From positions 1 to 63,474 of the IMG/VR virus record IMGVR_UViG_3300032177_000011: 63,474 bases of DNA; one strand, written 5' to 3'. The first letter of the stretch is position 1; every line of letters begins with the position of its first letter. A program made the position numbers and the translations under genes. The notes under the pieces are model-generated. The model did no database searches. It was not told the origin of the DNA and saw only the letters and a list, made by a program, of their open reading frames with translations. Source of the DNA: a virus. Taxonomy: Duplodnaviria; Caudoviricetes. Shown one piece after another: positions 38,727-62,892 of this stretch.

Positions 38727-39134
38727 TTATTTGGTTGCTCTCCTTACGGTAACAGAATATTTGGCATCGACGTTGAGCCCTTCAGGCATCAAGCCGGGGT
38801 TATCTTGCAGGAACTGCTTCATGTTGGTCTGAGCGACACGACGCTCCAAGAGGTCTACGGCATCGTGCGCACGAATGAAGGCGTGCATAGCACTCCAGTC
38901 GCTAGTCCAGTAGCGGGTCTTCACCGTGCGGGTAAAGGAGCCGTGGGCAGTCTTGCCGCCATCTTGGCCGGTAGTCTTGCAGATGGTAAGAAGCTCAGCT
39001 TCTATAGCGTCCATCTGGGTCTCTAGGCCCGCTAAACGAGCCTCATGCTCCGCTACCATAGCGGCCTTGGCATCACGCATCTTGATATACACACGCACTA
39101 ACTTATCGGCATCGTACTTAGTTTCGTCGGTCAT
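38727..39134 (-). CDS. Replication-module hypothetical protein
   Basis: KLVRVYIKMRD...KTRYWTSDW...LLERRV; AAGGA RBS; start set at ATG 39134. Confidence 0.7.
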   Translation of the reverse strand: MTDETKYDADKLVRVYIKMRDAKAAMVAEHEARLAGLETQMDAIEAELLTICKTTGQDGGKTAHGSFTRTVKTRYWTSDWSAMHAFIRAHDAVDLLERRVAQTNMKQFLQDNPGLMPEGLNVDAKYSVTVRRATK

Positions 39135-39775
39135 TTTGTTTCCTTGTTGGGAGTCTTTATTATACATAGTCTAGTCTGAATGTCAAGCAATCTCTTGTTT
39201 GTATGTACTTTGGCCTGTGTCGTAAGCGTTCGCTCAATACCCCACCCTGCACGAAGGCGCTCAGATACGCAGGCCCCAGAAAGCCCAACTTCGCGCCCCC
39301 ATGCAGATAGTGATTGGGTTCGCCCTTGAAACGTAATGTGCTTTTCATCCGCCCCAATAGGGGTCTCTATTGCTTGGGCGATATCCCACCCATGCTCAAG
39401 ACGATGCTTAAGCCGTTTATAAGGGACCTTATGGACTGCTGCCAAGGACTGCAACGTAGTCTGAATACCGTTGTACGTAAACAAGCGGGTTGTACTTCGG
39501 TTGTTACTTTGCGTGCTTGGTTTTGCCCATCGACAATTGGACGCACAATACTGCCCGTCGTTGTCTATTCGATCTAGTGAGTGTTGCGGGCTTGGTTTTG
39601 GTCCCATATCTGCGTAGAACACTTCAAAATTGGTAACCCAAGAAGGGCAAATCTGAATCCCGCGCCCGCCGTACCTAGGATATTTAGGGTTGTTTGGGTT
39701 TAGACATCGCCCTTTCATACCCGCCCAAGTTGTGTATTCTGGGGTTCTACGTAGCCCGTGCGTTCGTGGCATCAC
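39131..39775 (-). CDS. HNH homing endonuclease (free-standing; same family as the intein-nested HNH)
   Basis: W..MK.RC.NP....Y..YGGRGI...F..FYADMG..P....SLDRIDND..Y...NCRWA....Q.NN. Confidence 0.88.
   Translation of the reverse strand: MMPRTHGLRRTPEYTTWAGMKGRCLNPNNPKYPRYGGRGIQICPSWVTNFEVFYADMGPKPSPQHSLDRIDNDGQYCASNCRWAKPSTQSNNRSTTRLFTYNGIQTTLQSLAAVHKVPYKRLKHRLEHGWDIAQAIETPIGADEKHITFQGRTQSLSAWGREVGLSGACVSERLRAGWGIERTLTTQAKVHTNKRLLDIQTRLCIIKTPNKETK
39159..39186 (-). promoter_or_regulatory. Consensus sigma70 promoter inside the 3' end of the HNH gene
   Basis: TTGACA (39186-81), 16-nt spacer, TATAAT (39164-59); points at the 39134/SSB/HTH/primase genes. Confidence 0.75.
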
Positions 39776-41321
39776 CTACCTCCTGCTTGTATAAATCTAC
39801 CAATAATTGATGCGAGTCAACCTTACCGTCTAACATAGCGTACACCCGACGCTCCACGGGGCTGCCCTGCAGCCGAACTACCGTTACTTTATTGACCTGC
39901 CCTGCCCTGTGCGCCCGGGCGTTACCCTGCAGGTACAACTCAGCAGACGGAACGGGACTCCACCACACAACGGTATCGGCTTTCGTTAACGTTAATCCAT
40001 GTCCAGCAGCCGCAGGCTGAGCCAGTATAACGCGAGGCGCGGTTTCGGTTTGAAAACTTTTCACGACTACTGATCTCTGGTTTGCGGGTACCCCCCCGTG
40101 AATAACTCCTGTGGTTATCCCCGCCTTGGCAAGGGCTTGCTCCAGCATTTCTAGGGCATGGCGAAATGGTACGAACACAATGACCTTGTGGGTTGTTTGT
40201 TCAATCACATCCAGTAGCTCATTCACCCGGTTGCTCACATCAAACTCAATGACTTCCCTATCGGTGGCGTAAACACATCCGGCGCTAATTTGCAATAATT
40301 TATTTAACAGCCCCGCTGCATTGACCGCGGTAATCTCTGACCCCGCCGCTACAGCCACCATAGACTTGCGAACCTCCTCGTAGTACTTCATTTGCTGTAC
40401 GGTTAGCGGTATGTCCCGAGTGGTGTACAGCAAGTCGGGAAGGTCTAAGCACTCAGCCTTGGTGAAGCGTATCGCGGGCTGCAGGACTTTGAACACGGTA
40501 TCCTGTGCAGTAACTTTAGGAGCCCATTTGAAGTTGGTGATCTTGTACATAACCAAGTCGCGGAACGCCCCAAAGAACTTTGGCACCGCGCTAGGGTTGA
40601 CTAGCTTAGCCAGCCCATAGGCATCCGTAGGCGACTGCGAAGCGGGGGTGCCGGTCATAAGCCAGAGCCGGGTCGTGGGCTTAAGCAGGCTGTGCAAAGC
40701 CTTCCAGCGGTCTGTAGTGGTGGTTTTTACCGCAGTAGCCTCGTCTACGATGACCAGATCAAAGCCCCCTGCGGCAAGCTCTTCGCGTACTACCTTCACC
40801 CCATCAAAGTTGATGATGACAAACTCGTAGTCTCCGCTAATCAGTTGCTGACGCTTGGCTTTACTACCCGTAGCAATTGCCACGGTTCTGTGCATAAGCG
40901 TGCGGAACAAGTCAGCCCTCCATGCGGTATCCATGATGGACACGGGACAGACGATAAGCACACGCTTGATCTCGCCTTGCAGCATGAGGTAGTCCGCAGC
41001 CCATGCCGCTGCGCTGGTCTTTCCCGTGCCTGCTTCCGAGAGCACAAGGCACCGTGGGTGGGTGGCAAGGAACGCTGCGGTAGTACGTTGATGGTCGAAT
41101 GGGGTATACACCCCGGGCCACTTGTACCTGCCCGTTATGGGGTGCGGTACGTTTTTGATCTGCAGGTTACGCAGAAGCTTTGCCTCTATGTGCCCCCAGT
41201 TAACGAGGATTTTGGCTTGGTCGCCGTTGCGGGCGAGCACCTTGCTTTTCGGAATCAAGGCAGTGATCTGGTCTGCCTTGCGGGTCACAAACTGCAGTGC
41301 CCGGTTATCTATTATTTGCAC
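39747..41321 (-). CDS. SNF2-family helicase
   Basis: EAGTGKT, VDEA, MTGTP, AGHGLTLT, QGNARAHRAGQ. Confidence 0.9.
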   Translation of the reverse strand: MQIIDNRALQFVTRKADQITALIPKSKVLARNGDQAKILVNWGHIEAKLLRNLQIKNVPHPITGRYKWPGVYTPFDHQRTTAAFLATHPRCLVLSEAGTGKTSAAAWAADYLMLQGEIKRVLIVCPVSIMDTAWRADLFRTLMHRTVAIATGSKAKRQQLISGDYEFVIINFDGVKVVREELAAGGFDLVIVDEATAVKTTTTDRWKALHSLLKPTTRLWLMTGTPASQSPTDAYGLAKLVNPSAVPKFFGAFRDLVMYKITNFKWAPKVTAQDTVFKVLQPAIRFTKAECLDLPDLLYTTRDIPLTVQQMKYYEEVRKSMVAVAAGSEITAVNAAGLLNKLLQISAGCVYATDREVIEFDVSNRVNELLDVIEQTTHKVIVFVPFRHALEMLEQALAKAGITTGVIHGGVPANQRSVVVKSFQTETAPRVILAQPAAAGHGLTLTKADTVVWWSPVPSAELYLQGNARAHRAGQVNKVTVVRLQGSPVERRVYAMLDGKVDSHQLLVDLYKQEVGDATNARAT

Positions 41322-59809: not shown

Positions 59810-60325
59810 ATGCAATTTCCAGTCATTGACACGGACATCCCCTATGCGGAATACCCGCCGACCTTCGAGGACCTGCAGGCTCGGATAGCCGCTGCTTTCA
59901 ATAGCCTTGCGGAGATTGCCGATGATGTGCAGGTAACGGACTCTGATATCTCTGCGGCTCACGCCGTATTCACGGGTACCAAGGCCGCGACGGAAACGAT
60001 GCTCTCCTCCCCGGGGACCATTGTGCATATTAAGGCGCTGCTGGACGAGTACGATAAGGTCGTCATTCAATCCGCTGCCCAACTGCGAACCTACGTAACA
60101 AACAAGCTGATTGTGGATTCGGCTAACCCCGACCCACGGATTAGGCTCAAGTGCTACGAACTGTTGGGCAAAATCTCGGATGTCGGGCTGTTTACGGACA
60201 AGACTGAGATCACCATGCGGCACCGGCCTACGGAAGAATTGGAGCAGCTACTGCGTGAGCGTCTGATGAAGACTATCGACGCGGATATGTTTGCGATCAC
60301 TCCCCCTGCGGACCCGTTTGAATGA
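59810..60325 (+). CDS. Putative terminase small subunit
   Basis: ATGA-coupled to TerL; RLKCYELLGKISDVGLFTDK.EI...EELE..L. Confidence 0.7.
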   Translation: MQFPVIDTDIPYAEYPPTFEDLQARIAAAFNSLAEIADDVQVTDSDISAAHAVFTGTKAATETMLSSPGTIVHIKALLDEYDKVVIQSAAQLRTYVTNKLIVDSANPDPRIRLKCYELLGKISDVGLFTDKTEITMRHRPTEELEQLLRERLMKTIDADMFAITPPADPFE

Positions 60326-62892
60326 CCGACCGTACGGATATCCAGCGCCTGCTGGACAACCTCCCAAAGATGTCGCATATAGACATGGCGAACACACTGG
60401 CCTTGCTGGATGAGTTGGAAGAGCGTAAGCGTACGATGCTGGCGCAGAGTGAGTTCCTTGCGTTCATTGCGGCAGTTGACCCTGCCTATAAGTTTGGTAC
60501 GCACCTGAAGCGATTGGGTGCGCTTCTGACGCAAGTTGAGTTGGGTGAGAAGGATCGAGTAGCCGTGTCGATGGCCCCCCGGTTTGGTAAGAGCCAGATG
60601 ATCTCCATTTACTACCCTGCGTGGTACTTGGGTAAACACCCCGATCACAAGATGATCGTAGCCTCCCATACGGTTGACCTAGCTGTGGATATGGCGCGTA
60701 AGGTTCGTAACCTGATGCAAACCCCAGACTACAAACGGATATTTCCGGGCGTAGCTATCGCAGCCGATGCAAAAGCTGCAGGCAAGTGGAATACGACTAA
60801 AGGTGGAGAGGTTTACGCCACAGGCGTAGGTGGAGCATTGGCAGGCCGGGGGGCCGACCTGTGTCTGACGCCAGCAACCCTCGTAGAGACGTTAGAGCGC
60901 GGGTTTGTACCCTGCGGTACGGTGCAGGTTGGGGAGAGCTTACGTAGCTGGCATGGCTGGGCTAAAGTACTGAAGCGCATAACCCCCGAGCACTCCGCCA
61001 CGGTTACCGTAGCAGGCAGGCTAGAGGTATCCGCAGAGCATCCGATCTGGACTTGCAACCGTGGGTGGGTACCTGCAATAGACGTGTTACCGACGGATAT
61101 CTTGTGGACGACTTCATTTTGTGATAAGATACGTACTTATCTACAAGGAGTTACAAATGTCCTCACCGCGAAAACATGGAATGTGCAACACCCGGGTCTA
61201 CAACATATGGGCGATGATGTTGCAGCGCTGCACAAACCCCAAAACAGCCAACTACATAAATTATGGGGGTGCGGGCATAACAGTGTCGGTGCCGTGGCGC
61301 GACTTTTCTGTGTTCTACGCGGACATGGGGCTTCCACCTACACCGAAGCATACGCTGGATCGCATAGACAATTCCTTGGGGTACAGCCGGGACAACTGCA
61401 GGTGGGCGGACGTAGAGACCCAGCAGAACAATCGAACCAACGGGGTGCATATAACGGCGTTTGGGGAGACGCTATCCGCTCCACAGTGGGCGCGGCGAAC
61501 TGGACTAACCGTAGATATGATACGACATCGTATCTTCAGCATGGGGATGTGCCCCGAGCAAGCCCTACAGGCTCCACGAATGAGCCACAACACCCAACGT
61601 ATTTCCCGGTCCAACTTGGATGGCTCCGACGTGCGGGAGTACACCTCCTTAGCCGATGCGGCTCGCTCAGTGTCGCTAGAAAACTACGAAACCGTGAAGA
61701 AGGCTATTTGGTACGCCTTAAAGCGGGGCTCCAAGTCATCGCAGGGTTTTTGCTGGGCGTACGCCTCGCCGGCGCAACCCGAATAGATCGTCACGAAGCC
61801 CGTCCCTTTGTCAACTTTATGGTAGACGGGGACAATACCTTTGTAGCTGATACGATTTTGACACATAATTGTATCATCGACGATCCGATTTCGGAGCAAG
61901 ATATTAAGAGTGGGAATACCACGAGCCTAGACGGTGTTTACGATTGGTTCCGCAATGGTTTGCGTACACGGCTTATGCCGGGCGGGGCCATAGTGATCCT
62001 GCACACACGCTGGCACCAGCGGGACCTGATTGGGCGCTTATTGAAGGATACTGCGCTGAACGAAGACGGCGACAAGTACGATATGTTCGAGTTTCCGGCC
62101 ATTTTGGAGACTCCAAACCCGCTGGCAGACCCAAACAACGAGGAATTTGACCCCGATGCCCCGGCAATACTGCAGAAATCGCTGTGGCCAGAGCAATGGA
62201 GCTTGGAATCTCTCCTGCGGACCAAGGCGTCGATGCCGTCATGGCAGTGGAACGCCCAATACCAGCAGAATCCGACCGCGCAAGAAGCTGCGATCATCAA
62301 ACGAGACCATATTAAGTGGTGGCCCCATGAGAAACCTCCTGCTGTGGACTACATTGTGCAGTCATTTGATACTGCGCTCACCACAAAAACCCGTTCTGAC
62401 TACTCTGTGTGCCAAACATGGGGTGTATGGAAGAATGAAGAAGATATAGACAACGTAATCTTGCTAAATTGTGTAGTAGGTAAGTGGGAATTCCCTGAAT
62501 TGAAGCAAATGGCCCTGCAGCAGGCCAAAGATTGGGAGCCCGATAGCATAATTGTCGAGGCTAAGGCCAGCGGTCAGCCCCTGATTGACGAAATGCGGCG
62601 CTCTGGCTTGTTTGTGCAGGACTACAGCCCCGGTAAAGGCCAAGATAAGATAGCAAGACTGAATTCTGTCAGTGATATGTTTATGAGTGGGCAGGTGTGG
62701 TTCCCGGAAACGGGATGGGCTACCAGCGTGGTAGAGGAGTTGTTGGCGTTTCCTAGCGGGGAGCATGATGACCAAGTGGATACCTTGACGCTGGCGCTTA
62801 TTCGGATTCGCAAGGGCGGGCTCTTGCGGCTAACGTCCGACCACGGGGATAATTCAGACTTCCAAGCGGCGCGTAAAGCCTCTTACTACTAA
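60322..62892 (+). CDS. terL: Terminase large subunit precursor (856 aa; about 520 aa after intein splicing)
   Basis: Walker A MAPRFGKS, Walker B ADL/CIIDDP split by intein, TRWH, YQQNP, nuclease DTA...DYS, IVE, HDDQVD. Confidence 0.93.
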   Translation: MTDRTDIQRLLDNLPKMSHIDMANTLALLDELEERKRTMLAQSEFLAFIAAVDPAYKFGTHLKRLGALLTQVELGEKDRVAVSMAPRFGKSQMISIYYPAWYLGKHPDHKMIVASHTVDLAVDMARKVRNLMQTPDYKRIFPGVAIAADAKAAGKWNTTKGGEVYATGVGGALAGRGADLCLTPATLVETLERGFVPCGTVQVGESLRSWHGWAKVLKRITPEHSATVTVAGRLEVSAEHPIWTCNRGWVPAIDVLPTDILWTTSFCDKIRTYLQGVTNVLTAKTWNVQHPGLQHMGDDVAALHKPQNSQLHKLWGCGHNSVGAVARLFCVLRGHGASTYTEAYAGSHRQFLGVQPGQLQVGGRRDPAEQSNQRGAYNGVWGDAIRSTVGAANWTNRRYDTTSYLQHGDVPRASPTGSTNEPQHPTYFPVQLGWLRRAGVHLLSRCGSLSVARKLRNREEGYLVRLKAGLQVIAGFLLGVRLAGATRIDRHEARPFVNFMVDGDNTFVADTILTHNCIIDDPISEQDIKSGNTTSLDGVYDWFRNGLRTRLMPGGAIVILHTRWHQRDLIGRLLKDTALNEDGDKYDMFEFPAILETPNPLADPNNEEFDPDAPAILQKSLWPEQWSLESLLRTKASMPSWQWNAQYQQNPTAQEAAIIKRDHIKWWPHEKPPAVDYIVQSFDTALTTKTRSDYSVCQTWGVWKNEEDIDNVILLNCVVGKWEFPELKQMALQQAKDWEPDSIIVEAKASGQPLIDEMRRSGLFVQDYSPGKGQDKIARLNSVSDMFMSGQVWFPETGWATSVVEELLAFPSGEHDDQVDTLTLALIRIRKGGLLRLTSDHGDNSDFQAARKASYY
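60862..61869 (+). mobile_element. Intein (336 aa) in the TerL Walker B motif
   Basis: Block A CLTPATLV, block B VSAEHPIW, block F/G VNFMVDGDNTFVADTILTHN followed by +1 Cys. Confidence 0.92.
61157..61786 (+). CDS. HNH-NUMOD1 homing endonuclease nested out of frame (+1) within the intein
   Basis: AAGGAG 61145-50, ATG 61157; YGGAGI, FYADMG, TLDRIDNSLGYSRDNCRWA...QQNN; C-terminal LDG...EY.S..DAAR...GFCW.Y. Confidence 0.88.
   Translation: MSSPRKHGMCNTRVYNIWAMMLQRCTNPKTANYINYGGAGITVSVPWRDFSVFYADMGLPPTPKHTLDRIDNSLGYSRDNCRWADVETQQNNRTNGVHITAFGETLSAPQWARRTGLTVDMIRHRIFSMGMCPEQALQAPRMSHNTQRISRSNLDGSDVREYTSLADAARSVSLENYETVKKAIWYALKRGSKSSQGFCWAYASPAQPE

Follow-up and report, generated by a model that had tools for sequence, protein, structure and literature searches.

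A 2025 preprint (10.1101/2025.01.02.630785) describes in its text actinophage inteins with nucleases encoded in another reading frame or on the other strand, and reports as new an endonuclease VII-like gene "in frame 3". Fractured genes, in which a free-standing endonuclease gene lies inside a phage-type split mini-intein, were described by Dassa et al. 2009 (PMC2677866), and Arsenault et al. 2025 (PMC11855218) reported ShiLan-type out-of-frame HNH insertions in the DNA methylase genes of phages. In addition, the record of Brucella phage Tb (NC_019446.1) annotates gp07, its large terminase subunit (TerL), with "intein present", and the nested gp08 as "putative HNH endonuclease, intron-encoded". 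Here we analyse the DNA of a virus of the Caudoviricetes, IMG/VR record IMGVR_UViG_3300032177_000011. The window, that is the whole stretch of DNA analysed, is the complete virus record of 63,474 bases and has direct terminal repeats. We conclude, with a probability of roughly 80%, that its terL gene contains a gp41-1-like mini-intein carrying a free-standing-type HNH endonuclease gene overprinted in the +1 frame, that stop codons in the host frame have been purged by selection on TerL, and that the element spreads by homing.

The terL gene is a single uninterrupted open reading frame (ORF; Table 1), as had been claimed in the original prediction, which was made from the sequence without database searches. 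Its product matches phrog_38 (terminase large subunit) with an E value of 3.9e-97 in two stretches that leave out residues 182-516, and Terminase_6C is the sole Pfam family seen in it (E 4.2e-8). The predicted intein comprises TerL residues 181-516 (336 aa, positions 60862-61869) and lies in the Walker B region, with the junctions GADL↓CLTP...THN↓CIIDDP (arrows mark the splice sites). Its removal leaves 520 aa, which is the length of the intein-less allele, so that the position and the size originally given for the intein are both borne out. Up to the junction, the N-extein is 96-100% identical at the nucleotide level to that of the intein-less loci L005 and L007.

The residues typical of class 1 inteins are present (Cys1, the block-B His60, H335-N336 and Cys+1), and C1, H60, T334, H335 and N336 are invariant in 6/6 aligned homologous inteins. 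No Pfam family and no PHROG family was found for the 336-aa in-frame sequence, and phmmer with the single intein sequence gave no match in the PDB. A profile made from six intein sequences matched the gp41-1 intein among the PDB sequences with an E value of 3e-7, in both of its halves (gp41-1 positions 4-46 for the N half and 96-128 for the C half), and NrdJ-1 with an E value of 0.0019. In an AlphaFold model based on the six-sequence alignment, the pLDDT (predicted local distance difference test) values are 67-90 for residues 1-80 and 66-91 for residues 305-336, but below 50 for residues 81-304. Foldseek ranked gp41-1 first for this model (E 2e-5); the top matches, all of them intein, bacterial intein-like (BIL) or Hedgehog Hint-fold structures, include gp41-1, BIL, NrdJ-1 and DnaB inteins, with template modelling (TM) scores to the target of about 0.5. 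Blocks A, B, F and G, which had been read from the letters, are thus supported by the family profile and the fold model, but not by the curated hidden Markov models (HMMs). Together, sequence and model indicate that the element is a class-1, gp41-1-like mini-intein in the Walker B region of TerL. In tblastn searches of 50,697 phage records the intein matched only six Gordonia phage MuF-protein inteins, in the N half only, and this intein family has no cultured-phage member in that collection; blastn of terL against the same records gave no match.

Between the two splicing halves, the +1 frame relative to TerL ((61157-60322) mod 3 = 1) contains an ORF that spans positions 61121-61786 and encodes 221 aa from a GTG, or 209 aa from the ATG at 61157. 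The gene has its own TAG stop codon (61784-61786). The 209-aa protein matches phrog_3377 "HNH endonuclease" over residues 5-187 (E 2.2e-48). Its AlphaFold model has a mean pLDDT of 84.2 and matches 128 viral structures predicted in BFVD (E<=1e-3), of which those that carry a name are phage HNH endonucleases; the C-terminal half also folds confidently, into helices and strands, and is unnamed. A 13-sequence HNH profile found no match among the PDB sequences. The intact +1-frame HNH gene with its own AAGGAG and stop is therefore confirmed by the ORF listing and by phrog_3377, whereas the NUMOD1-like tail attributed to its product is unsupported, since Pfam gave no family at E<=1. Overall, HMM searches of the two frames were positive for the HNH (phrog_3377) and negative for the curated intein models and NUMOD1.

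The sequence CAAGGAG ahead of the nested ATG is kept in the homologous loci L003, L004 and L026, and L024, L025 and L027 have GGAG-like sequences. A Shine-Dalgarno-like sequence is thus present upstream of the ATG in 7/7 nested genes compared on viral contigs, which fits independent translation of the HNH gene. A regulatory hairpin over its ribosome site was considered and rejected (z -1.14; 27/200 shuffles fold equally well). Relatives of the phrog_3377 type occur in 943 phage records at varied positions, and the window itself contains a free-standing paralog (Table 1), which we used as a control and whose family may be the source family of the nested gene. These relatives support the claim that the nuclease derives from a free-standing gene. 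The paralog begins 29 nt within the 3' end of an upstream helicase-like gene (39747-41321, minus strand), a short overlap resembling those reported for free-standing endonuclease genes.

Comparison of the window with L004 indicates which frame codes in each part of the intein. The two sequences are about 64% identical at the nucleotide level and differ by a single indel, 3 nt long, in 1008 nt. At TerL codon positions 1, 2 and 3 there are 33, 25 and 60 differences in the N-terminal splicing half (60862-61156) and 7, 4 and 11 in the C-terminal splicing half, compared with 106, 55 and 56 in the HNH segment, where TerL codon position 1 is HNH codon position 3. The substitution peaks shift at the borders of the HNH gene, and therefore the flanks evolve as a TerL-frame protein and the middle as an HNH-frame protein. 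Within the HNH segment, the TerL frame is selected only for the absence of stops, and the in-frame reading of the middle of the intein is filler. This agrees with the original prediction, which saw no nuclease motif in the in-frame middle and regarded the intein as a neutral harbour with an off-frame filler. Population variants were also recorded. A C>T change at 61537 seen in runs X11 and X15, which alone would create a TAG in the TerL frame, never occurs there without A>G at 61538, and the two yield TGG; the pair changes a Ser to Gly in the HNH protein.

A host-frame stop arises in this arrangement when a T-ending HNH codon is followed by AA, AG or GA (xxT-AA, xxT-AG, xxT-GA). At the junctions at risk, T-ending codons make up 0/41 in the window HNH gene, 14/48 in the paralog, and 13/39 and 20/94 in the exteins. 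Two null models were used: synonymous resampling of the HNH codons with the codon usage of the window, and permutation among the synonymous codons already present in the gene. In the window, the TerL frame was open in 0/20000 resampled sequences (mean of 12.8 stops expected) and in 7-8/20000 permutations. For the nested genes of L003 and L004, these numbers were 0/20000 and 3/20000 each, and permutation of 13 distinct metagenome nested genes left the frame open in 0-3/2000 for 12 of them and in 78/2000 for one. In free-standing relatives the corresponding frame contains 2-14 stops (12/12, omitting L030 and L035, which duplicate L029 and L034), as against none in 7/7 nested genes on viral contigs; the paralog has 14 stops in the frame that the nested copy keeps stop-free. 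Because the genetic code offers a non-T-ending codon for each amino acid, the nuclease protein need pay nothing for an open host frame. Selection on the essential TerL thus keeps its frame free of stops through synonymous choices in the HNH gene only. That the double open frame exceeds chance had been estimated from (61/64)^210, about 4e-5, and the resampling points the same way.

The layout is conserved in relatives. A scan of IMG/VR with TerL yielded 19 loci, of which 14 are complete without intein (about 520-549 aa) and two are C-terminal fragments (L010, L021); L003 and L004 share the intein and the nested gene, and L020 lacks this intein (intein 1). A scan with an HNH alignment contributed L024-L027, and the intein alignment, used to scan metagenomes, gave 61 loci, 22 of which were examined. 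Sixteen of these 22 contain a full intein with a nested +1 ORF matching the HNH profile (E 1e-50 to 1e-96); the other six comprise three cut by contig ends (L057, L059 and L060, not counted among the complete nested cases), two independently shortened inteins (L052, L061) and one fractured locus (L091). Nesting was rejected for L040, where a 540-codon frame over a free-standing HNH gene is only a stretch without stops that lies upstream of a different terminase gene. In total, nested homologs were found at 23 loci and represent 17 distinct genes, which are 37-95% identical to the window HNH. All 17 have 0 host-frame stops, so that the +1 frame and the avoidance of stops, both of which had been proposed as checks, are kept down to 37% identity.

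The distribution of the intein and the identity profiles around it indicate that the intein and the HNH gene have recently been mobile as a composite, in agreement with the original prediction of a mobile unit. Intein 1 is absent from the site in 16 loci (15 intein-less alleles, and L020, which has only another intein, intein 2), where the empty site reads ...G(A)(D/H)L↓(I/A/L)(V/I)VDDP. The closest intein-less alleles read ...GRGADL↓IVVDDP, and L007 and L008 share the 18 nt of the window before the site. Phages whose TerL is 96-97% identical lack both the intein and the HNH gene, and the window clade is nested among them in a tree made from the exteins only (37 rows, C-terminal fragments L010 and L021 omitted), which requires at least five presence/absence changes of the intein. 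Between the window and L003, identity is 63-88% in the exteins but 92-99% in the intein, save for one 90-nt bin at 86%, and it reaches 100% over the first 45 nt of the C-extein. Compared with the intein-less L005 and L007, the window is 96-100% identical throughout, except at 61870-62229, where identity drops to 69-93%. A foreign tract, here of roughly 360 nt, present only 3' of the intein is expected from entry by break repair with one-sided (3') co-conversion, and it would suggest that the cut is made 3' of the insertion site.

We therefore propose the following sequence of events for the overprinted element. A free-standing HNH gene with its own Shine-Dalgarno sequence, ATG and stop would have taken the usual position of the endonuclease domain, in the +1 frame. 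Ribosomes translating the TerL frame would produce the 856-aa precursor, in which the Hint halves would fold around a disordered loop of about 224 residues and splice out, leaving the 520-aa TerL, while ribosomes initiating at 61157 would produce the 209-aa HNH protein. In a co-infection, the HNH protein would cut intein-less terL alleles, probably just 3' of the insertion site, and repair would copy the intein, the HNH gene and a downstream stretch of extein into the cut allele.

Several observations weigh against this interpretation. Splicing, independent translation of the HNH gene, cleavage and the site of cleavage are all deduced from sequence. The 209-aa protein matches no Pfam family at E<=1 and no Pfam HNH model, its model has PacI, an HNH enzyme, as the best Foldseek match in the PDB, at an insignificant E value of 0.9, and the label HNH rests on PHROG and BFVD family names. 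On the side of the intein, TIGR01443 reached 14.8 bits on the C-terminal half, against a cut-off of 15.6 (E 0.026), and Vint on the N half stayed below the threshold (E 0.11). Contigs of the RNA-library run X15 cover 60700-61053, 61205-61772 and 61903-62000, which demonstrates neither transcription nor strand nor translation, and the gaps in this coverage and in that of run X8 carry no meaning. The rows of the extein tree come from searches favouring intein carriers, and their frequencies are uninformative. The direction of the tract exchange, that is gain in the window versus replacement in L005 and L007, is suggested by the sharing with L003 over the first 45-90 nt only. Finally, seven protein clusters (P0003-P0009) whose exteins are 98-99% identical to those of the window have an in-frame deletion of 139 codons, which takes out the 5' two-thirds of the HNH gene, and nine of the 17 listed population variants inside HNH alter its protein. 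The nuclease may thus be decaying in the window's own population.

The last two observations are also what would be seen if the HNH were a relic, that is, if it were no longer an active homing nuclease and the element had become fixed and was decaying, with both frames still open as the decay is recent; selection on TerL would then hold the host frame open, and nothing would now maintain the HNH gene. The two further inteins that were shortened independently (L052 and L061) fit this explanation as well. However, the nested ORF is intact with its Shine-Dalgarno sequence, ATG and stop, as are 17 distinct nested homologs down to 37% identity, the substitutions are biased to the third position of HNH codons, and the protein has a confident predicted fold. 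Moreover, the much higher identity of the inteins than of the exteins between the window and L003 speaks for a recent transfer. We consider it unlikely that the HNH is a relic, although it is the most probable of the alternatives.

In HK97-like cos phages, a terminase-associated HNH protein works with TerL in DNA packaging. The nested HNH protein could accordingly be such a helper of TerL and no homing enzyme, and its location within a terminase gene agrees with that. HNH genes often adjoin terminase genes (PMC3592412), which also counts in favour of a packaging role. A helper is difficult to reconcile, however, with the phages of 96-97% identical TerL that lack both the intein and the HNH gene, and with the persistence of the deletion variants. 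Free-standing members of the same HNH family occur next to a helicase gene of this genome and at varied sites in the 943 phage records, and the co-conversion pattern fits homing. A function in packaging is therefore very unlikely.

Still less probable is a functionally split gene, in which TerL would be made as two trans-splicing polypeptides, for example because ribosomes rarely cross the 224-codon filler. The nearest solved relatives of the intein, gp41-1 and NrdJ-1, are indeed split inteins, and the homolog L091 (36% GC) is fractured, with 10 host-frame stops and a C-part that has its own ATG. In the window, on the contrary, the host frame is stop-free, a start signal for a C-terminal piece, for which no search was made, is not established, and the strong avoidance of stops in 17 distinct alleles would be pointless if reading through were not needed. 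The idea that two compensating indels near 61150 and 61790 mask an in-frame HNH domain as an assembly artefact is hardly credible, because the HNH gene has its own Shine-Dalgarno sequence, ATG and TAG, the region 60700-62000 shows substitutions only, without indels or joints, in four runs from four different studies and is covered in full by one contig with 0 gaps, and the same frames are seen in contigs from many different metagenomes.

With overprinting by a homing nuclease gene as the preferred interpretation, five allele states can be distinguished within one intein/HNH family: empty, stop-free overprinted (17 distinct), HNH-deleted, ectopic, and fractured split-intein. It is conceivable, at somewhat less than even odds, that this series represents a pathway in which, once a free-standing nuclease gene has invaded a mini-intein, selection favours overprinting as the alternative to fracture of the gene. 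If so, base composition would decide the outcome, as stops can be avoided synonymously only where T-ending codons can be spared, and the pathway would explain how split inteins like gp41-1, and also new in-frame nucleases of inteins, can arise naturally. The fractured state is seen in L091, a contig of 1076 nt. The stop of the N-part is at 234-236, host-frame stops extend across the HNH gene up to 720, and the ORF of C-intein plus C-extein starts at an ATG at 762 and overlaps the 3' end of the HNH gene. The frame of the HNH gene relative to the host differs in L091 from that in the contiguous alleles.

Other alleles vary in position or content. In L061 (686-2848), an intein of the same family sits about 12 residues upstream of where it is normally found (GGEYFA↓C...THN↓CGVGS), and only a 102-codon remnant of the HNH gene is kept; the insertion is thus ectopic and its nuclease has decayed. 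Cys1 is located one or two residues deeper in the Walker B strand in L025 (844-850) and L027 (2191-2194), which read AHLLL↓C and SDLL↓C, respectively, instead of ADL↓C and are the two most divergent TerL alleles. P0011 (1187 aa), a TerL relative with intein 1, has a precomputed match to PF05204 (LAGLIDADG-type homing endonuclease), and this gene may therefore combine a canonical in-frame nuclease with one that is overprinted.

Out-of-frame nucleases were also observed in other inteins of the relatives. L003 (2847-3752) and L020 contain a second TerL intein (ILH↓C...SHN↓T; Pfam Intein_splicing, E 5e-13), whose +2 frame contains a complete gene for Endonuclease_7 (PF02945, E about 6e-19), at 3083-3676 in L003 and 1904-2497 in L020. 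The host frame of this intein is stop-free beyond chance, being open in 20 and 4 of 20000 resamples. A third intein is present near the C-terminus of TerL in L025 (2904-3563; DDYVDT↓C...VHN↓C) and holds a +2-frame HNH_3 gene (PF13392, E 5e-18), and an intein whose middle looks like filler occupies the corresponding place in P0010. The loci L062-L097 include distant relatives of the intein N half, several of them in other terminase types. Among 40 distant Hint-N relatives examined, 19 have same-strand nested out-of-frame ORFs; the ORFs picked from these 19 loci for Pfam were HNH_3 in 10/10 cases, all in the +2 frame. Intein domains were found in 7/7 hosts tested, and three hosts match terminase families. 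In the window, predicted internal promoters (4 versus 3.4 expected) and terminators (4 versus 3.2 expected) are in no excess over chance, and two antisense ORFs within the intein (61318-61644 and 61166-61450, minus strand) were rejected as genes for want of a PHROG family.

Table 1. Coordinates of the terL locus and of the HNH paralog in the window.
Feature	Position	Strand	Remarks
TerL precursor ORF	60322-62892	+	856 codons plus stop, no interruption (ORF listing)
N-extein	60322-60861	+	180 aa; ends ...GRGADL immediately ahead of the Walker B strand
Intein, N-terminal splicing half (predicted)	60862-61101	+	Residues 1-80, with Cys1 and block-B His60
In-frame intein "linker"	61102-61773	+	Residues 81-304; the HNH gene read off-frame, without an own fold
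Shine-Dalgarno sequence AAGGAG	61145-61150	+	6 nt ahead of the HNH ATG
Nested HNH endonuclease gene	61157-61786	+	209 codons plus TAG; +1 frame relative to TerL
Intein, C-terminal splicing half (predicted)	61774-61869	+	Residues 305-336; ends ...TFVADTILTHN
C-extein	61870-62892	+	340 aa plus stop; begins with Cys+1 (CIIDDP; IVVDDP in intein-less alleles)
Probable co-conversion tract	61870-62229	+	C-extein DNA arriving with the intein (identity profile versus L003, L005, L007)
Free-standing HNH paralog	39131-39775	-	Same genome; 41% identity to the nested HNH (E 5.5e-29); phrog_3377, E 3.8e-62

This layout escapes gene callers as well as intein HMMs; in the window, Pfam saw neither the intein nor the HNH. 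The layout recurs widely, in the 17 distinct close homologs, in the distant +2-frame HNH_3 genes and at two further TerL intein sites. It supports the view that inteins acquire their nucleases through invasion by free-standing genes, and it ties contiguous inteins to gp41-1 and NrdJ-1, the split inteins used in protein engineering. In addition, it is a clean example of dual coding from nature: one frame is selected only against stops, and this selection can be measured at 41 codon junctions. As in canonical in-frame intein nucleases, the coding sequence is located between blocks B and F and the life cycle would be that of homing; unlike in these, the nuclease would be a separate polypeptide with its own start and stop.

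Literature searches found no paper analysing the nested HNH gene of Brucella phage Tb, and none on an out-of-frame HNH within an intein, though supplementary tables of the 2025 preprint may list some. The original prediction had allowed for isolated precedents, and the Tb record and the preprint are such precedents. In the TerL of Tb, of about 848 aa, the intein occupies the same site in Walker B as in the window (...AD↓CLVAG...VHN↓CVIIDDP), and, as in the window, a complete same-strand HNH gene is nested in its +1 frame ((3170-2347) mod 3 = 1). The HNH of Tb is, however, non-homologous to that of the window (BLASTP E 5.1; phrog_1271 versus phrog_3377), the exteins are only about 30% identical, and the record calls the gene intron-encoded.

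The fractured genes of Dassa et al. 2009 share with the window a free-standing nuclease gene in a phage-type mini-intein, and the window intein is nearest to gp41-1 and NrdJ-1. Their layout is exactly that of L091, where the 3' end of the nuclease gene likewise overlaps the beginning of the C-part. In the window, in contrast, the host frame is unbroken with 0 stops, and one precursor could splice in cis; the nucleases in that paper are of the GIY-YIG and Vsr-like types, whereas the window has an HNH. The ShiLan-type insertions resemble the window in having an HNH hidden in the other frame of a stop-free host ORF and a patchy, homing-like distribution. As described, they differ from it in that they have no intein or splicing element, so that the filler stays in the host protein, and no detectable ribosome-binding site, whereas in the window a strong Shine-Dalgarno sequence precedes the ATG.

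The window also resembles the inteins of the 2025 preprint. According to its text, these are contiguous inteins, often in TerL, with a same-strand nuclease in another frame between the splicing blocks; the in-frame reading has no recognisable fold, and its authors also deduce invasion by a free-standing nuclease. The endonuclease VII type of the preprint (PF02945, +2 frame) is itself present in the second intein of L003 and L020. The nuclease of the window is instead a phrog_3377 HNH in frame +1, and not an endonuclease VII in frame 3; the text of the preprint lists HNH as in-frame only, although its supplementary tables could hold out-of-frame cases. In addition, the preprint describes actinophages, whereas the hosts of the present elements are uncultured phages from sediment and freshwater samples, as far as the loose habitat labels tell. 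What is known in kind is thus not changed by this locus. The kind of layout was already annotated in 2012 for Brucella phage Tb and published in 2025, and what is new here is the nuclease family, the frame and the phage group.

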